Shown here one piece after another: positions 2,047 through 46,200 of a stretch of 64,000 nt of DNA. Both the position numbers and the translations under genes were made by a program. The notes under the pieces were generated by a model. It was not told where the DNA came from. It saw nothing but the letters and a program-made list of their open reading frames with translations, and ran no database searches. Source of the DNA: Octopus vulgaris (taxonomy: Eukaryota). How positions within the stretch are numbered: the stretch's first letter is position 1; each line of letters begins with the position of its first letter. Location of the stretch: positions 178,808,001 to 178,872,000 of the forward strand of contig OX597815.1 of NCBI GenBank assembly GCA_951406725.2, read 5' to 3'.

Positions 2047-2368
2047 ATATATATATTTGTATATTATTGTAGGTATTTGTGGCTAATGCACAAATCCACT
2101 CATAAGGCTTTGGTCGGCCTGAGGCTACAGTAGAAGACACTTACCCAAGGTGCCACACACTGAACCCGGAACCCAGTAGGCTTTATACTTTTATGTGTAA
2201 TACCTACTGATTTTGTTGGCATTAAGATAAGTAGTGGCAAAATAAATGCTTTGTCAAATTTAATTTAATTACATCTAAAATAGGTTGTAAAACAAAAAAC
2301 AAATTTAAAGGTGACCTTCAAACTATATCAGCTGTATAAGCTGCTTATGTGTATCTGCTCTACAATCA

Positions 2369-2508
2369 TTTACATTATTTACATTTGATGGATATTTGTC
2401 CTCATCTTGCTTGTTGTTAACACATTTTGGCTGATCTACCCTCAAGCCTTCATCAGGTGTCTTGGGGAAATTATGAACCTGGGTTCTCATTCCTAAGGTA
2501 TTTTTTGA

Positions 2509-2541
<33 letters not shown>

Positions 2542-2636
2542 CATTATTCAGGTCACTGCCTGGAATTGAACACAGAATCTTGGGGTTAGTAGCCCGTGCT
2601 CTTAACCACTACGCCATATGCCCACAAGCATATGGT

Positions 2637-2730
<94 letters not shown>

Positions 2731-2937
2731 TGATGATGATAATAATAATAATAATAATGATGATAATAACAACAACAACAACAAGATCGAAAAATGCCTT
2801 AGGCATGAGAACCCAAGTTTGAAATTTCCCCAAGACACCTGATGAAGGCTAGAGGGTATATCAGCCGAAATGAGGACAAATATCTGTCAAATGTAAATAA
2901 TGTAAATAATTCCTCATTTCTTAAACATAGAACTGTA
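2369..2937. mobile_element. Composite tRNA-head/hammerhead-like element with inverted arms and 13-bp TSD
   Basis: TGCTCTACAATCA at 2356-2368 and 2938-2950; tRNA-like head on the minus strand at ~2549-2623; homologous arms at ~2370-2510(-) and ~2785-2937(+); (AAT)n spacers. Confidence 0.8.
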
Positions 2938-30226: not shown

Positions 30227-33200
30227 GCACATTTGCAACAAGTGTCTTTCCATTTCTGTCGACTAAATCCACTCACAAGGCTTTAACCCTTTCGTTACCA
30301 ACCCGGCTGGAAACCGCTTCTGGCTCTGAGTACAAATGTCTTGTTTTCATAAGTTCTGAATTAGAATCTTCCACCAAACCTTAGTCACAATTAATGTTCC
30401 TAACACTAGTTTAATGATAACGAAGTTATTTTACTAAATTCTTTGTTATATTTAAAAGTAATTGAAAGAAACACAGAGCATCTCGAAATAAATACAGTAA
30501 CGAAAGGGTTAATCTGTAAGCAACAAAGGGTTTCTCCCTCTAAGTGAATAGCAGATTATATGATGCTTGCGTGTGAAGTATAATATTGCATGGGGGTGAA
30601 ACACAGCCATTGAATGCAGAAACTTTGCAAAGGCAGGAAAGAAATTAGGCAAGCTTGATCTGCTGGGGGTGTAATCATCATTATCGTCATTGTATGTCTG
30701 CTTTCCGTGCTGGCATGGATTGGACAGTTTGATGGGAGCTACACCAGATTCCATAGTCTATTTTCTACAGTTGGATGCTGTTCTTGCTGCCAGCCACTTT
30801 ACAGAGTGTACTCAGTGCTATTTTTTATATGACACCATTACTAGTGCTTCTCATGTGGCACCAGTACACTATGAATAAAGATTCTGCTAGTTATGTACAC
30901 TCAAGACTAGTAGAATTTGCTGTGATTTATACTATAGAATGTGCACCATCACCAGCATATATTGTGCAACTCTTTTAAATATTTTCATGTATATTGTGTT
31001 GATTGCAGGTGGCTCGTGCAGCTGTGATCTTTAATGTTGATGAAATTGTTGTCTTTGATGAAAGAAAACACAGTGACAGGTGAGTTTTATATTCTTAATT
31101 ATTATTATTATTATTATCATTATTGTCAACCTAATCATTACTGTTATCATTAATTTGATTAGTGGTTTGGCATGTAAAAAACACCTGGCATCGACCATGT
31201 TTGGACGGTGCTTTTTACATGCCACCGGCATGGGAACCAGACGCGGAACTGGCATTGACCACATTCGCAAGGTGCATTTTATATCATCGTTGTTTAACGT
31301 CTACATTCCATGCTGGCATGGGTTGGACGGTTTGACTGAGGACTGACGAGCCAGAAAGCTGCACCAGGCTCCACTCTGATCTGGCAAGGTTTCTACAGCT
31401 GGGTGCCCTTCCTAACGCCAACCACTCCGAGTGTGTAGTGGGTGCTTTTACGTGCCACCGGCACAAGGGCCAGTCAGTCGGTTCTGGCAATGACCACGCT
31501 CAAAGGTGTTTTTACATGCCACCTGCACGGGAGCCAGTCTGGCGGCACTGGCAATGATAAAAATATGGGACGCTTCATGAATTTGCGTGCCATCCTTGTG
31601 CTGGGGCCATGCTAATTTTCTCTGTATTGTTCCGATTTTAGTATATGTACTGTCGCATTCTTAATAATGTTGTTTGGAATTCAAGACTAAAAATTTTAAT
31701 ACATTATTCTAATTCTATGGATTATGGTAGGAGAGGAAGAACCAAAAAGGAAATGTTGGTAATCTCTAAGGATGGTGAATTAAGGTGGAAATCCACTTTA
31801 ATTATATCCTGTGTGAACTGTGTGTTGGCAGACTGTCCACTTTTTGCCCATGCTGGAGCGTTACACCAGGCTATAATTGTCTGTCTTGGCTTGTTTTCTA
31901 TGACTGGCTGCCTTTCCTATGCCAACCACTGTACAGAGTGTACTGGGTACTTCTTATGTGGCACCATAGCCAGTGCTTTTTATGTCGCATCAGCACCAGG
32001 GCTTCATATGTGACACCAGCTTGGGTGCTTTTCATGTGGCACCAGCACAGGTGTTTTTTACGTACATGGAGATATATATCACCTCACATTAGGTATACAC
32101 TTTATGTTTCCACACTCTTTCATAGACATCATCATCATCATCGTTTAATGTCCATTTTCCATGCTAGCATAGGTTGGACGGTTCAACCGGGGTCTGGGAA
32201 GCCAGGAGGCTGCACCAGGCTCCAGTCTGATCTGGCAGTGTTTCTACAGCTGGATGCCCTTCCTAACGCCATCCACTCCGTGAGTGTAGTGGGTGCTTTT
32301 TACGTGCCACCGGCACGGATGCCAGTGAAGGTGGCGCTGGCATCGGCCACGTTCGGATGGTGCTTTTTACGTGCCACCGGCACAGGGATCACAACTTGAC
32401 TCTTACTTTCTAAAAGCCTCGAATAATTTCCTTTCCTTTGCAACAAAGGCTTCTGTTAGGATTTTTCTGGCCATACTACAGCAACTCTGCTTACGCGCAT
32501 TCTGTTTTATCCTTAGAAATGCATCTGGAGGGTTTAAGGCAGATTCCAACCACCTCTTTGGTCGGCTCCTACAGTACCTGGAATGTCCGCAGTATATTCG
32601 CAAACAGCTGTTTCCCAGACATAGTGATCTTCAATATGCAGGTGAGATACTCTTTTTACTCTATTACTTGTTTCAGTCTTTTGACTGCGGCCATGCTGGA
32701 GCACCGCCTTTTAGTTGAGCACATCGACCCCAGGACTTATTCTATGTAAGCCTAGTAGTTATTCTGTCGGTCTCTTTTGCCGAACCGCTAAGTTACGGGG
32801 ACGTAAACACAACAGCATCGGTTGTCAATATATATATATATATATATACATATATATATACATATATACGACGGGCTTCTTTCAGTTTCCGTCTACCAAA
32901 TCCACTCACAAGGCTTTGGTCGGCCCGAGGCTATAGTAGAAGACACTTGCCCAAGGTGCCACGCAGTGGGACTGAACCCGGAACCATGTGGTTCATAAGC
33001 AAGCTACTTACCACACAGCCACTCCTATGCCTATGTTCCCATTTCTTTTATCGTTTTGTTTCATATCCATTTTATCAATGCTTTTGAGGCATGTTGTGAT
33101 GGCTTTTTTTTTTTGTGAATTTGGAGATTTATTTACTGGTGAAGCAATTGTTGTTGGTGTTGTTGTTATAGCTTGCAGTCTTCCTTAATTGGAGTCCAAG

Positions 33201-36200: not shown

Positions 36201-39200
36201 CCGTGATGAAAAATACTCCTCCAGTACTGTTCTGACCTCGTCAACAGAATTCATATTTTTTCCGTCCAAATGATTTTGAAGACTGCCGAATAAATGATAA
36301 TCAGATGGGGTAATGTCTGGCGAATATGGTGGATGGGGCATCATTCCCCATTCAAACTGCTCCAGCCTTTGGAATGTCATCCTTCCAGAATGTGGCTGAG
36401 CATTATCCTGATGGAAGAACACCTTTTGTCTTGAAACCAAAAATAATTGTTTTTCTTGTGCTGGTGTCAATGAATGGTTGAATGACCAAATCCAAGCTTC
36501 TCTGCTAGTTCCTCAACAGTTATGATGGGATTTTGTTCCTCCAGGACTTATTCTTTGTAAACCTAGTACTTATTTTATTGGGTCCTTTTGCCGAACTGCT
36601 AAGTTACAAGGATGTAAACACACCATCATTGGTTGTCAAGCGATGGTGGGGAACAAACACAAACACAGACACAAACAACAAACATACATATATATATACA
36701 ACAGGTTTCTTTCAGTTTCCATCTACCAAATCCACCCACAAGGCTTTGGTCAGCCTGAGGCTATAGTAGAAGACACTTGCTCAAGGTGCCACACAATGGG
36801 ACTGAACCCAGAACCATGTGGTTGGGAAGTAAGCTTCTTACCATACAACTACTCCTGCACCTATAATTAAATATTATTTGAAATTGCAGAGAAGAATCGT
36901 TAAAATATTGTGTTTTGTAGAAGTATAAACAGTTTATTGCACACAGTTTTAACAACGATTCTTAATCCCCCCCTCCCCATGGTCATATGGACCCTAGTTG
37001 AATCCCATTGGTTTAGTTCCTGACTAAAGTGAATACCTTGTCATATTTAATTCTGCCCCTTTATGTTCTTTATTGAAATGCTGTTGGAATTGAATTAAAA
37101 GGGTAACATTTTATTTATCTGGGGTTGATAAAATAAGGGACCACTCAACAGATGGGGCGAGTAATGGCTTTGGGTCCAAGTCAGACATGATTGTTGTTCT
37201 CTTTGAGAGCAGGTAAATCACTAAGGTATACTGGAGGCGCTCGTAAGCATCCGAATTTCAAAATTTTGCTGTTATCAATTCCTGTACAAGCCAAAGTTTT
37301 GCTTTTGTCCAAAGAAGATAAATAAAGTACATACCAGTGATATACTAGGTCAATTCAATGAACTATAGTCTCTTGTGTCCCAAACAGGGTTTACTGTTAG
37401 AAACTTTCTTATTGCTGGCCACTTGACCATGAAGAGAAAAAAAATAGAACTTGTTTTCTGCTTGACGGGCGAACCGGAGCAAGCAGAGTTATCTACCTTG
37501 CCCAGCTACACTAAGATAAGCGATTATATTGCTGACTGTTACAGAAACATCCGACCAGACGGTGTACTCACCGCCGGGCATCTACCATACTCTGAACGCT
37601 TTGCATCCCTGGGCATGGACACATCAAAGCTCTGATGTCTGGCAACAGACTTGGCAGACACCCACGAGATTATCCATAATCTTTCCATCGACAACCTTGG
37701 CCACTCTTTTGAATTCCATATGACTAACGCTTGTGGACATGTTTAAAGAATCAAGAAGCAACACAGACCCCATGACTTTTAGGAACATCTTCAGAATTTC
37801 TAAAGCATGGAATAAACTACCCCCAACAGTTGTTAGCTGTTGCTTCTTGAAATTTATGAACAGTATGCTTCCTTGAGATTCACCAACACTACACCTGATT
37901 TTCTCCTCTCCATACACACGCAAGCATGTATCTGACTCATACACTGTTCGCTTTCCAGACATTTGTACATTACTGCATATGCTTTATACGCACTTTTGAC
38001 AAGTTGTGGTGCACCTGAGCACTGTATGCAATAATTTCATTATTATTATAGTATGCCTGATGCTAACCCCACTCTTTATTTTAAATGACTCATTCACTGT
38101 TCACTTATGGTGCATTTATTCTCTGTACCATTCAGGCCCTTTTTGGCTACTTTTTATGATGAATAGCGCTGCACCTGAGTATTGTATGCAATAAATTCAT
38201 TCTTATTACTCTTACAAAAGTGGTGAGCTGGCAAAACCATTAGCACACCAGGAGAAATGCTTAGCAGCATTTTGTCTGTCTTCAGGTCCCAGTTCAAAGT
38301 GTCTTGTGTCTTTAGTAGAAAGGATTATTATTATTATTGTTATTGTTATTATTATTCATCGTTTAACATCCATTTTTCATGCTGACATGCGTTTGATGGT
38401 TTGACTGGGGTCTGGAAAGCCATGGAGGCTGCACCAGGCACCAGTCTGATCTGGCAATGTTTCTACAGCTGGATGACCTTCCTAATGCCAACCATTCTGA
38501 GAGTGTAGTGGGTGCTTTTCACGTGATACTGGCACGGGAGCCAGTCAAGGCGGTGCTGGCATTGGCCATGTTTGGATGGTGCTTTTTATGTGGCATGGCA
38601 CAGAAGCCCTTGAGGCAAGGGGGCTGGCATCGACCACATCCAGATGGTGCTTTTTATGTGCCACCAGCACAGAGACCACAACCACAATTTCTATTTGATT
38701 GTAATATGATTTGATGTTGATGTACTTGACTCAATAGGTCTCCTCAAGCACGGCATGTTACCCTATAATCCAAGGTACTTTTTGAGTGGGCTGGTTATAT
38801 TAAGGATTGTTATTATTCTTACAAGATTTCCATTGCTTGATGTAATTTGTTGCAACACTATAACACGGTGCCAGGAAAGATACCTTGGAATGACGCCCCC
38901 CCCCCTCATTACACCTCATTTTAGGGATGAAGCTTTAGAATTTTCAGGAAATACTGGATAAAAGTTACAACATTCATTCCTTTTCCCAGGAAAAAGGGCA
39001 GTAGTCATTTTTCAGCCTGGAATTAAAATTGCCGATTCAGCTGGCCAGAGCTTTACACTAATGTATTACAGTTCTAATTGAATACAGATATAAATATTAG
39101 TACAGTGGTTAAGAGTGCAGGCTACTGACCCCAAGATTCTGAGTTCAATTCCAGGCAGTGACTTTAATAATAATAATAATAATAATAGTGATAACAACAA

Positions 39201-42200
39201 CATCGGAAAAATACCATAGCAATGAGAACCCGGGTTTGAAATTACCCCAGGACACCTGATGAAAGCTGGAGAGTTTATCAGCTGAAACGTGTTAACAACA
39301 AAAGATGAGGACAAATGTCCGTTAAATGTAAATGATGCACATAATTCCTCATCTCTTAAATATAGAACTGAATAATAATAATAACATCAAAAATTACCTT
39401 GGAAATGAGAACCAATGTTCGAAATTTCCCCAGATACCTGATGAAGGCTGGAGGGTATATCAGCCGAAACGTTAATATCCGTCAAATGTAAATAATGTAC
39501 ATAATTCCTCATCTCTTAAATATAGAACTGAATAATAATAATAATAATAATAACATCGAAAAATACCTTAGGAATGAGAACCTAGGTTTGAAATTTCCCC
39601 AAGACATCTGATGAAGGTTTGAGATTTCCCCAAGACATCTGATGAAGGTTGGAGCTGAAACGTTAATATCCGTCAAATGTAAATAATGTACATAATTCTT
39701 CATCTCTTAAATATAGAACTGAATAATAATAATAATAATAATAACATCGAAAAATACCTTAGGAATGAGAACCCAGGTTCGAAATTTCCCCAAGACACCA
39801 GATGAAGGCTGGAGTGTATATCAGCCGAAACGTGTTAATAACAAACAAGACGAGGACAAATATCTGTCAAATGTAAATAATGATTCCTTATTTCTGAATT
39901 GGCTTTGGTAATATCCTTTCCCATAAAATATAAATATTAGTGTCAAGACAAATAATACAGATTGATGATTGTAAATCCTTACGTATACTTTTTCAGAAAC
40001 GAACATTCTGAAGGGCACAGCCGTTTCTTTCTCAACTCCCCGTACAGAAGCCGGTATTTATTGGGGTTATACTGTGAGAATGGCTGATAGCTTGAGCTCT
40101 GTGATCACTGAGTGTCCTTATGAAGAGGGTTACGACACCATCATTGGAACATCTGATAAAGGAACGAGTGTTGATGAATTAAAGCTAGAAAAATTTAGGT
40201 TTGTCTTGTACTTCTTTTTGAAATATAATAACTCTATTATGTGTTATGGGTAGTGAAGATGTGTGGCATAGTGGTTGGGGTATTTGGCTCACATTTATTA
40301 GGTTGTGAGTTCAATTCCCAGCAGTGTTTTGTGTCCTTGAGCAAGACACTTTATTTCATTGAGATGTGTGTGGTTACACTGTCCAGTGCAGTTAGTCTTG
40401 CTGCCACCAGATAGTATGAAATCCATGGTTTCAGTCCTGTCATTGGACTTGTTCCTCACGGGTTGTAGAGAGTAGAATTGGTAAGGCGATGGACAAAAAT
40501 ACCTTGTGGTATTTGATACTTTTACATTCTGATTTCAAATCCTGGCCTAGGTTAAATTTGTCTTTCATCTTTTGAAGGCCAATAAAAAGTACCTGTCATA
40601 AATATCTGCCTCTTATGCTAAAAACAATTATTTAACTCTTTAGCATTCAGGTGTTTGTAATTAACCGAGCATTCACCTCATGCCTTTGAGATTTCAATGA
40701 TGTCATCATCATCATCGTTTAACGCCCATTTTCCATGCTGGCATGGGTTGGACTGTTTGACTGAGAGAGCCAGCAGCTGGACCAGGTTCTAATCTGATCT
40801 GGCAATGTTTCTACAACTGGATGCCCTTCCTAATGCCAACCACTCCAAGAGTGTAGTCAGTGCTTTTTACGTGCCACCGGCACAGGAGCCAGTCAGGCGG
40901 CCCTGGCATCAATCACATTAGGATAGTGCTTTTTATGTGCCACCGGCATGGGGCACTGGCATTGGCCACTTTTGGATGGCACTTTTTACATGCCACCAGC
41001 ACGGGAGCCGGCCTGGCATTGATTACATTTGGATAATACTTTTTACATGTCACCGGCACAGGAGTCAGTCAGGGGATACTGGCATCAACCACATTCGGAT
41101 AATGCATTTTATGTGCCACTGGAACAGGAGCCAGTCAGGGGGCACTGGCCATGGCTACGACTTTGGTTTTACTTGACTCAACAGGTCTTCTCAAGCATAT
41201 CATATCACCCAATGCATCAAGGGTCCTCTTAAATGGGCCGGACATGCAACAGTGACATCGGCCATGGCTGCAATCTCATTTTAGTTGCTGGGTCTTCTCA
41301 ATCACAACATATCTCCAAAGGTCTTGGTCTCTTGTCATTGCTTCTGTGAGGCTAATTGTTTAATTTTAGAAGGATATATTAGGTTTAGTGCGAGAGGCTG
41401 ATTTGAACATAAAACAAATTGAAGGGTTGAAGGGTTGCAGAATCCTTTGTATGTCACAAAAACATGCCTTGTGGCATTTGTTGTGGTTCTTTATATTCTG
41501 AGTTCGAATCTTGTCAAGCTCTACTTTGTTGATCATCCCCCTGAGGTTGATAAAATAGAGATACCAGTCAAATACTAGGGTTGATATTCACTGATCCCCT
41601 TCCTCCCTATTGTGCTAGAGCCCTGTGCCTATTTTAGAAACTATAATTATTATTATTATTATATATTATTGTATCAGAGTATTGACCAGACTATCAGATG
41701 TTGTTATACATTGCTGGTCACAATGCGCTTCACATTGTTTTACCTCTTGAATGATGCCACCCCACTGGCACGAGCAGCAGGCCAACATTTCCCCTGATTG
41801 GAAGGCTAGTCCATTGCAGTTGGGTTGGACTGGAGCAATGTGAAGTGAAGTATTTTGCTCAAGAACACAATGCACCACCCAGTGCAGAAATTGAACCCAC
41901 AATCTAGCAGTTGTGAGTGCAACACCCTAACCATCAGGCCACAGAGATGATAAAGCCATTCTCTGTCTAGATTCAGAGTTCAAATATCTGAGACCAGAAA
42001 CTTTAGCTTTCATCCCTCTCTACTTGGTAAAATATATACAAAGGATAGGCTAAAATTGGTTTAACTCACTACATCCATCTCATACGACCATTTAGCTTAA
42101 CCCTTATGTTACTGTATTTATTTTGAAATGCTCTGTGTTGGCATTAGGAAGGGCGTCCAGCTGTAGGAACACTGCCAGATCAGACTGGAGCCTGGTGCAG

Positions 42201-43269: not shown

Positions 43270-46200
43270 GTTTAGCGTCCACTTTCCATGCTAGCATGGG
43301 TTGGACGGTTCAACTGGGGTCTGGGAAGCCAGAAGGCTGCACCAGGCCCAGTCTGATCTGGCAATGTTTCTACGGCTGGATGCCCTTCCTAACGCCAACC
43401 ACTCCATGAGTGTAGTGGGTGCTTTTTACGTGTCACCGGCACAGGTGCCAGACGAGTCTGGCAAACGGCCACGATCGGATGGTGCTTTTTATGTGCCACC
43501 AGCACAAGGGCCTGGCGAGGCTGGCAACGGCCACGAACGGATGGTGCTTTTTATGTGCCACCGGCACAAGGCCAGTCGGGGCTGCGCTACAGGTGCCAGA
43601 CGAGTCTGGCAATCGGCATTTTATGGGAATATATTTTTAATTTAATTTATTTGAAGCCTGTCTTTTCAGCTAACTGTGTATTTCAGAATCAACTTTTTTA
43701 TAATTGCTTATCTGGTCTTGGTGCCATGTAAAAAGTAGTGCCACATAAAAAGCACTCGTGTCATTGCCATGAAAAGGCACCTGTGCTGGTGCCATGCAAA
43801 AGCCTAGTACACTTTGTGAAGTGGTTGGCGTTAGGAAGGACATCTACCTATATAAACTATGCCAAAACAGACAATCAGAATCTGGTGCAGCTCCTGGCCT
43901 TGTCAGCTTCAGTCAAACCGTCCAACCCATGCCAGCATGGAAAATGGACATTAAACGATGATGATGATGACGATTGAAGAATCTATTGAGACGTTTTGTA
44001 GTTGTTTTTATCTCTTTTTTGAAAATATTTCCACCCTTGCTGCTCCTGCTTTGTTTTAATAATGGTAGAAGGCATAGAAACACAATAATCTTTTTTTTTT
44101 TATTATACTGGTTGAAGGGGGTTAGGGTCCATATCTTGCTTATATCTACCATTTTTTGACGTGGCTTCTACAGCTTGATGCCCTTCCTAATGCCAACCAC
44201 TTTACAAACTGCACTGTGTGCCTGTGCCATGTAGAAATCACCCAGTGGAGCACTCTGTAAAATGGTTGGCATTGGGAAGGGCATCCAGCTGTAGAAACCA
44301 ACCCCAAACAGACTATGGGACCCAGTGGAGAGAAAGTACTTTTGATGGAATGTGAAGCTACATTTACTTTTTTTTTCTTTTTGCAATAACTTTTCAGTTA
44401 GGAACCAACACTTTGGCATTTCTTCATTTGGCTCCCACACTCTATAATCTGGTAATTTAAGTAAACTAGGCAGAGAATCAGAGCGCCATATAGTATGATA
44501 GAACACAGAAGTAAGTACATTATTTACATTTGATGGATATTTGTTAACGCGTTTTGGCTGATATACCCCTCCAGCCAAGTATCTTGGGGAAATTTCCTAA
44601 GGTATTTTTCGATATTATTATTATTACAATTATTATTATTATTCAAGTCACTCAGAATCTTGGGGTTAGTAGCCCACGCTCTTAACCACTATGCCATATG
44701 CCTGTGGGCAATTATGGAGTGAATTTTAGGGCTTATAAATCTAATATTTTCCTATCCTTCCGAGTTTGATTCCAGGCAGTAACCTGAATAATAATAATAA
44801 TAATAATAACAACAACAACATTGAAAAAAAAATACCTTAGGCATGAGAACCCAGGTTTGAAATTTCCCCAAGACCCCTGATGAAGGCTGGAGAGTATATC
44901 AGCTGAAACGTGTTGACAACAAACAAGATGAGGCCAAATATCTGTCAAACGTAAATAATGTAAATAATGTACATAATTCCTCATCTCTAAAATATAGAAC
45001 TGTACAGAAGTAAGTAGTTGACTGTGAGAGCAATCATGAGGTTTAGTGAAAAACAACATGGGTGACTCATTGCATGGAGTTGATAGCTAACCCTGTTGAC
45101 TGCTGGTTGTGGCAGCAAAGACAATGTGTTGAAAACATTAATGGAATTTCCACTTCTGTTTGTAACAAATGGTTTCTTTTTTTTTTGTGTGTGTGAAAGA
45201 AAGTCTGTATGAAGCATGGTGCAGCCTGTTGAGGATGGATGGACGTTGGATGCTGAAGATATGTGGAGGGTAAAGAGAAATGGGGTTTGAGCTTGATCCA
45301 TTTGATGTGTGATGCTAGTTGTCATGAGTGGCTGATCACTAATGTGCTGAGGGTGTGGCTGGGCCGTGCACATCATCATCATCATTTACTGTCTTCCTTC
45401 CATTCAGGCATGGGTTCTACATTTTAGTGTCGAGATCTGGCAAGGCCAAGAGCCATACCTGGCTTCATTGGTTGCTTTGGAACGGTTTCTATGGCTAGAT
45501 CATCATCATCATCGTTTAACGTCCGTTTTCCAAGCCAGCATGGGTTGGACGGTTCGACCGGGGTCTGGGAAGCCAGGGGGCTGTACCAGGCTCCAGTCTG
45601 ATCTGGCAGTGTTTCTACAGCTGGATGCCCTTCCTAATGCCAACCACTCCGAGTGTGTAGTGGGTGCTTTTTATGTGCCAGGACTGGCTGGCAGTGGCCA
45701 CAATCGATTGGTGCTTTTTACATGCCACCGGCACGGAAGACAATCAAGGTGGCGCTGGCATCGGCCACGTTCAGATAGTGCTTTTTATGTGCCACTGGCA
45801 CAGGTATCACAACTACAATTTCCATTTGATATTTATTTTGATATTGATGTACTTGAAATCAACATCAAAATAAATATCAAATGGAAATTTTTTTATATGC
45901 CCTTCCTAATTCCAACCATTTTACAGAGTGGACTAAGTGCTTAAATCTGTTGGCTTGTAACATCAACAATTTCCCATTCTGCTATTGAAGCTGTGCTGTA
46001 ATTCGTTTCCCTCAGTGATGTAACCGTTACTTGAAGCTGGTGTAGAATCAATAAAAATAATTAAGTGCCTGGAGTGGTTGGCGTTAGAAAGGGCATCCAG
46101 CTGTAGAAACATTGCCAGATCAGATTGGAGCCTGGTGCAGCCGCTGGCTCTTCAGACTTCAGTCAAACTGTCCAACCCGCGCCAGCATGGAAAACGGATG

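Follow-up and report, generated by a model that had tools for sequence, protein, structure and literature searches.

What kind of element is the array of hammerhead-like repeats that interrupts a SPOUT1-type gene of Octopus vulgaris? The window analysed here is a stretch of 64,000 nucleotides (assembly GCA_951406725.2, contig OX597815.1, positions 178,808,001 to 178,872,000 of the forward strand). At 39102-39927 of this window, a tRNA-like head is followed by four head-to-tail units carrying hammerhead-like cores. A preliminary description had interpreted the array as an independent short interspersed element (SINE) or retrozyme, relying on RNA polymerase III (Pol III) for its transcription, mobilised by the reverse transcriptase (RT) of a Penelope element, and possibly releasing monomeric or circular RNA. 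The head, the B box at 39143-39151, the four units with their (AAT)n spacers and the string given for unit 2 at 39438-39473 were all recovered, the last of these exactly. We nevertheless read the sequence at 39102-39882 as a dead, tandemly amplified pseudo-long terminal repeat (pLTR) of a Penelope/Poseidon-type retrotransposon, in which the tRNA-like start of the pLTR is likely an internal Pol III promoter, and we assign this reading a probability of roughly 0.75. The anatomy of the monomer, the coding partner, the insertion ends and the state of the cleavage site are the parts of it that were observed.

The repeat is dispersed through the genome. Seven insertions were present in 60 blindly chosen 10-kb pieces (one weak match to the head only was excluded), which extrapolates to ~33,000 insertions in the 2.8-Gb genome, with a 95% range of 13,000-67,000. 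Copies are on average 79-89% identical to each other, indicating a decayed family. A Penelope/Poseidon RT motif was found in 113 places, and the head, linker and unit lay ~1 kb behind it, 29 nt after the stop codon of the open reading frame (ORF). The end of the ORF was reached in 26 of 41 ORF loci; it was followed by the head directly in 21 and after a short deletion in three, by only the first bases of the head in one, and by no head in one, so that the head follows the stop in 24 of the 26. One copy (L360/L259) retains the full order of head, unit, ORF and head, and starts at the same base as the short copies. Short deletions in three ORF-bearing copies (L261, L305 and L309) were seen to start at a palindrome just before the head.

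The unit itself is the beginning of the coding sequence. Its ATG opens a frame that runs through the hammerhead, and in one locus (L005) this frame matched the N-terminus of a database protein, P0005, with 47% identity over 72 amino acids (pairwise E value 5e-17). A consensus built from 30 copies has an open frame of 749 codons, matches RVT_1, and is 57% identical to P0005 over 749 amino acids. A C-terminal GIY-YIG-type endonuclease with a CCHH motif was assigned from the motif and from the precomputed domains of relatives; PF01541 gave no match to P0005 or P0001. In one monomer, the head and (AAT)n precede the ATG and the hammerhead; RT, the GIY-YIG-type endonuclease, the stop and 29 nt come next, and a further head and unit begin behind them. 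The preliminary description had suggested looking for an autonomous Penelope with RT and GIY-YIG-type endonuclease sharing the unit, and a Penelope with this unit was located, the unit continuing into its ORF. Head, (AAT)n and unit together are its pLTR, the head included, and the short element is not independent in the sense first proposed. This pLTR of ~270 nt holds the promoter boxes, the ribozyme, the ORF start and, by prediction, the RT start sites.

No CxxC linker and no (TA)n targeting were seen, and identity of the ORF is 29% to a Neptune-type and 25% to a Hydra-type ORF of the same genome. Both of these families have intact elements (a 765-amino-acid ORF and an 899-amino-acid frame, respectively) and were tried as partners, but their ends do not match the unit. 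The young Neptune-type element (L151, C16:20834000-20843999, and many others) has, besides its intact 765-amino-acid ORF, an upstream ORF of 346 amino acids, (TA)n targets and a U3-A8 variant of the minimal hammerhead ~80 nt before the element end. The young Hydra-type element (L221, C1:119513000-119522999), with its 899-amino-acid frame, forms 3.6-kb tandem arrays, and a scan found no hammerhead in most of its copies.

The insertion ends, scored in loci chosen by similarity, by pattern or blindly, are those of a Penelope element. A head-to-head inversion, with an inverted 5' arm, was present in 42 of 79 insertions. Among 32 inversions with the unit at both ends, the 25-nt tail stood at one end in 30, at neither in two, and at both in none. 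Exact flanking duplications of at least 8 nt, most commonly 13 bp, were found in 20 of these 32 inversions compared with 34 of 992 mismatched pairs. Inverted arms, a tail at one end and target duplications are hallmarks of Penelope insertion (PMC8557442), explained by two internal RT start sites (PMC11167929). Penelope-type mobilisation, as originally suggested, is borne out, and the short copies are head-to-unit pieces with Penelope-type ends. A search for a different sequence upstream of the unit, or for another helix II loop, turned up nothing but truncation junctions. What precedes the head-less units proved to be unrelated repeats that had inserted into the (AAT)n linker. No fewer than three such families lie inside or adjacent to the (AAT)n linker in L015, L021, L004, L058, L080, L008, L073 and L024, splitting the head from the unit. 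These insertions are likely AAT-targeting long interspersed elements (LINEs) such as Dong.

The hammerhead of the family is of the minimal type I. An exact 29-mer that includes the triplet after GAAAC had 2750 matches and the 26-mer without the triplet 362, while reversed controls had none, so that the pattern does not arise by chance; a minimal type I hammerhead, complete and with GUU as its site, is therefore the family norm. GTT is the triplet in 97 of the 100 matches listed among the 2750, and in 98 of 112 full-length sites, 28 of which were picked by pattern. CUGANGA, helix II, GAAAC, NUH and helix I are all present in the majority form, which upholds the hammerhead assignment for the family. 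Helices I and II formed when locus L063 was folded; the motif has a 5-bp helix I, an extra base before helix II, and a palindromic ACGU that might make up helix III in a dimer. It is predicted to work only as a dimer or with the help of protein, and insertion can probably do without it. With copies that keep the cleavage site and others that lack it, the family offers a natural series for asking what importance the ribozyme has in vivo. Other short repeats whose cores resemble a hammerhead were noted elsewhere (L238:1122, L240:5444, L166:4276, L224:1235 and 1795, and L230:7861), among them a CCGACGA/UCGACGA variant and one whose helix III is palindromic.

In the array at 39102-39927, the core, an NUH triplet and helix I occur together in none of the four units. 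In units 1 and 4, as the preliminary description had stated, pairing is possible between the five bases ahead of the core and the five that follow GAAAC, and no NUH lies between them. Because no unit forms a complete hammerhead, the release of monomer or circular RNA from this array is not expected, contrary to the earlier suggestion. Within the family, moreover, tandem arrangement is an exception: of 75 unit starts, only four had another unit directly before them, and three of these are in this array. A five-copy tandem array of a triplet-less unit, with a period of ~216 bp, was seen at C2:2734903-2735793.

The 14-bp direct repeats bracket the whole insertion (probability of a chance occurrence 0.00085, from random window pairs; Table 1). 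The match to the A-box consensus at 39098-39108 is completed by flanking bases. A DNA-level duplication of 191 bp (39462-39808, 96% identity) likely made unit 3, which is best read as copied from where unit 2 ends and unit 4 begins. The four units were likely built by template jumps or unequal exchange at the CTG shared before (AAT)n, followed by this duplication, and deletions removed every cleavage site. Contigs of two DNA runs (X18 and X19) cover both junctions of the array; one contig of X19, the run with a different organism code, crosses the join of units 1 and 2 unchanged, and none spans the array. Two further insertions lie in the window, and the fuller head described earlier on the minus strand belongs to one of them.

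Table 1. Positions of the array, of the other insertions and of the neighbouring exon in the window
Feature	Position	Strand	Remarks
Direct repeat, left copy, 14 bp	39088..39101	+	Likely target-site duplication; family mode 13 bp
tRNA-like head, 5'-truncated	39102..39167	+	Head positions 14-77; B box 39143-39151
(AAT)n linker	39168..39200	+	pLTR part upstream of ORF start
Unit 1 and tail	39201..39370	+	Core 39256, GAAAC 39284; cleavage triplet lost by 3-nt deletion
Unit 2 and tail	39385..39530	+	Core 39438; GUU kept; 3' strand of helix I lost in 27-nt deletion
Unit 3	39554..39721	+	31-bp internal duplication; collapsed helix II; 27-nt deletion shared with unit 2; GUU kept
Unit 4	39745..39882	+	ORF start codon 39765, frame open through hammerhead; core mutated (CAGATGA, 39799); triplet deleted in frame
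Degenerate tail start and ~28 unassigned bases	39883..39927	+	Assignment partly conjectural
Direct repeat, right copy, 14 bp	39928..39941	+	
First run of at least four T after the head	39989..39993	+	Possible Pol III stop; within pyrimidine tract of splice acceptor
Host exon	39998..40199	+	Pfam PF02598 match, SPOUT1-type methyltransferase family
Second insertion, head-to-head inverted pair	2364..2935	.	Full head 2547-2623 (-); tail at one end; 13-bp duplication; cleavage site absent in both units
Third insertion, inverted pair	44508..45002	.	44702-44761 (-): last codons of Penelope ORF, stop and 3' untranslated region joined to head

The array was said to lie about 100 nt upstream of a SPOUT1 exon, and unit 4 does end 115 nt before the exon at 39998-40199. 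Exons near 29.8 kb and 42.9 kb match PF02598 too, which places the array in an intron, on the sense strand. It had further been proposed that active cleavage would cut the pre-mRNA, and that this may explain why every copy looks defective. The defect holds for the window but not for the family, the majority of which keeps the GUU site. That the missing triplet protects SPOUT1 pre-mRNA, selection having removed sense-strand cleavage sites from the introns, appears improbable to us. Both intronic insertions do have sense units without the site, and all scorable units of the window are defective compared with ~12% genome-wide; Xenopus introns are also depleted of retrozymes according to a preprint (bioRxiv 10.64898/2026.07.22.740005). 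But the same 3-nt deletion recurs in both orientations and far from SPOUT1: it is locally frequent on both strands, affecting all scorable units of the window and three of five in the left 100 kb, but none of seven in the right 100 kb, and it is found 26 kb upstream of the first exon found. With triplets lost from sense and antisense copies alike, a protective role for SPOUT1 is not demonstrated. Minimal hammerheads alone, moreover, cleave poorly (PMC4209133).

Neighbours of deletion-bearing copies keep the triplet in 11 of 16 cases, so the deletion looks recurrent, as would be expected of slippage between short GT/GTT repeats. For the same reason, and because no diagnostic changes are shared, the idea that the triplet-less copies form one subfamily found no support. 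As PAc of Anolis inserts in vitro without hammerhead cleavage (PMC11167929), triplet-less copies could still have moved. The array is a dead copy without a demonstrated effect on SPOUT1. The deletion forms a cluster of ~165 kb (window 2364-45002 and C2:178708001-178808000) comprising five insertions on both strands, and five exact matches of the deletion type lie within C2:175.5-181.8 Mb. A SPOUT1 intron also contains, on the opposite strand, a copy of the U6 small nuclear RNA (31559-31667, minus strand, 89.6 bits), which may be a gene or a retrocopy.

What is unusual about the family is that a coding element has, within its pLTR, a tRNA-like head bearing A and B boxes. Among 43 full heads, the A box was present in 35 and the B box in 27, and both boxes stand at tRNA spacing in the consensus; the tRNA-like head of the preliminary description is confirmed. 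Its best match among the host tRNA genes compared was tRNA-Arg (z 8.4). The starts of 60 heads were not spread evenly: 40 fell within -7 to +7 of the head start, six heads extended into the ORF and 14 started later inside the head, whereas the truncation rate inside the head predicts ~5 starts in the 15-nt start window. TTTT is absent from the 2571-nt consensus. It occurs 8-17 times per ORF in four full or near-full Neptune- and Hydra-type ORFs and twice in one 819-nt piece, and at 2.0-8.8 per kb in all eight of eight distant relatives. In the closest database relatives checked (P0001-P0007), phenylalanine makes up 2.2-3.2% of residues compared with a mean of 4.0% in 48 long relatives, which would fit avoidance of T runs in the whole subgroup.

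RNA synthesis would start at the head, through Pol III. For cDNA synthesis, the Penelope RT would then start internally on the RNA, using either of two sites that lie behind the hammerhead, at unit positions ~149 and ~174, leaving the tail optional; two internal RT start sites have been demonstrated in vitro for PAc (PMC11167929). If the RT started in the first pLTR, only ~270 nt would be copied back to the RNA start, yielding the SINE-like majority of copies, each with its own promoter boxes, and if it started in the second pLTR the ORF would be copied too. A bolder proposal, which we offer tentatively and consider doubtful as it stands, is that a coding retrotransposon is read wholly by Pol III. 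A terminator-free RNA of ~2.9 kb (pLTR-ORF-pLTR) would be made, the choice of pLTR by the RT would decide between a SINE and a full copy, and translation of the uncapped RNA might follow once cutting by the hammerhead and circularisation have joined the ORF up again over the cut site. The pLTR is a small construct on which Pol III transcription of a coding retroelement can be tested.

Several observations weigh against the reading we favour. Neither ARAGORN (on the window, and with relaxed settings on the head) nor Rfam called the head a tRNA, as it is too decayed, and only 20 host tRNA genes of six isotypes were compared with it. The Rfam hammerhead and tRNA models found no match in the window, in 10 intact loci (hammerhead model) or in one pLTR alone. 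A palindrome sits at the head start, and such 5' palindromes are ordinary in Penelope pLTRs (PMC3846280); the sharp head start therefore need not be a transcription start. The depletion of TTTT is modest (codon shuffle, P 0.04; base shuffle, P 0.01-0.02), GGGG is likewise absent from the consensus (P 0.03), and the strand is only 21% T. Because of this, the absence of TTTT is a hint only. Contigs of one presumed RNA run gave a family-wide signal, but contigs cannot show starts, cuts or circles. No intact ORF occurred among 135 scored copies, the longest open frame being 569 amino acids; unit 4 of the window taken alone matched P0005 weakly (E value 0.027), and the name Penelope/Poseidon was assigned from motifs, not from a tree.

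The most serious alternative accepts the same Penelope pLTR but takes the head to be a passive passenger, a piece of a SINE captured at the end of the ORF. RNA would then be made by RNA polymerase II (Pol II) or by read-through, and short copies would start at the head because the RT stops or folds back at the palindrome. The position of that palindrome and the weakness of the TTTT signal are in its favour, as are the rotifer Penelope pLTRs, for which 5' palindromes and TATA-like promoters have been described (PMC3846280), and the argument of Kojima that the processivity of Pol III is too low to serve autonomous elements (PMC10886601). Against it, A and B boxes persist at tRNA spacing in the consensus as well as in the majority of heads, the 5' boundary coincides with the position of a tRNA gene start, and the other Penelope-like ORFs of the genome are rich in T runs. 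On balance we consider this alternative unlikely.

Far less credible is the independent Pol III-driven retrozyme of the preliminary description, whose tandem hammerheads would release monomeric or circular RNA. Retrozymes do derive from pLTRs (bioRxiv 10.64898/2026.07.22.740005), the core of the family forms a complete minimal hammerhead whose helix III strand is palindromic, and tandem copies exist, four here and five in the array elsewhere. But the rarity of direct tandems tells against it, as does the want of a complete hammerhead in any unit of the array, which for this reason fails the criterion of two consecutive complete hammerheads given in the same preprint. Its units carry private changes, one of them is a DNA-level duplicate, and head and unit belong to a coding element. 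An ordinary tRNA-derived SINE with a LINE-derived tail we consider practically untenable. The head with its A and B boxes would suit it, and tRNA-SINEs of octopus have been described (Ohshima and Okada 1994, cited in PMC4758252 and PMC4824008). The unit, however, is Penelope coding sequence and not the 3' tail of a LINE, the insertions have inverted, duplicated 3' ends and a one-sided tail, and the autonomous partner shares not just the 3' tail but also the head, which 24 of the 26 copies extending to the end of the ORF possess. As the head joins (AAT)n directly, there is also no room for the ~60-bp CORE domain of the OR1/OR2 CORE-SINEs.

The element departs from the definitions of SINE and of retrozyme on one tested feature each. 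By the features tested, the element is Penelope-like, and its short form behaves like a SINE. In the usual description, a SINE is a parasite that takes nothing but the tail from a LINE, and autonomous retrotransposons are transcribed by Pol II. The Penelope element described here appears to carry a SINE of its own, which would be a direct route for the birth of SINEs from Penelope elements. A coding Penelope with a tRNA-type pLTR was not found in the literature searched; Repbase, Dfam, subscription journals and supplements, including the repeat library of PMC13282606, lay outside that search and may hold the family.

The element resembles PAc of Anolis (PMC11167929) and Pen2a_Av of Adineta (PMC3846280) in its single ORF of RT and C-terminal endonuclease, in a pLTR that overlaps the ORF start and holds the hammerhead, and in the presence of solo pLTRs, an inverted 5'-truncated arm, an optional tail at one end and a variable target duplication. 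It differs from both in that a tRNA-like A/B-box head and an (AAT)n linker open its pLTR, in that short head-started copies outnumber ORF-bearing ones, and in a tail of ~25 nt as opposed to 30-40 nt; the word 'tRNA' does not occur in PMC3846280. The hammerhead is like the minimal type I hammerheads of metazoan Penelope-like elements (PMC4209133), having no helix III of its own, a palindromic 15.2-16.2, an extra base between position 9 and helix II, a G-C closing pair and a 5-bp helix I. Unlike them, the octopus family has GUU as its site, and the array units have each lost the site, helix I or a core base. Non-LTR retrozymes are likewise pLTR-derived, hammerhead-bearing, non-coding copies (bioRxiv 10.64898/2026.07.22.740005, in which the word 'tRNA' does not occur), but the octopus copies are mostly dispersed, single or inverted, with a tRNA head, and the array is without two complete hammerheads.

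The nearest precedents are the Sm-alpha and TRIMp3 elements. Schistosome Sm-alpha and Sj-alpha (PMC2770079, PMC6765202) share with the octopus family a tRNA-derived Pol III promoter, in octopus a predicted one, followed by a hammerhead, and tandem copies. The available parts of those two articles describe no autonomous partner with the same head, whereas in octopus the head lies within a coding element and the hammerhead is minimal. The TRIMp3 elements Cassandra, Helenus and Ajax (PMC10886601) carry a Pol III promoter derived from a small RNA in their terminal repeat, as the octopus element putatively does. They are non-coding long terminal repeat elements whose autonomous partners are expected to be transcribed by Pol II, whereas the octopus repeat is the pLTR of a coding Penelope.

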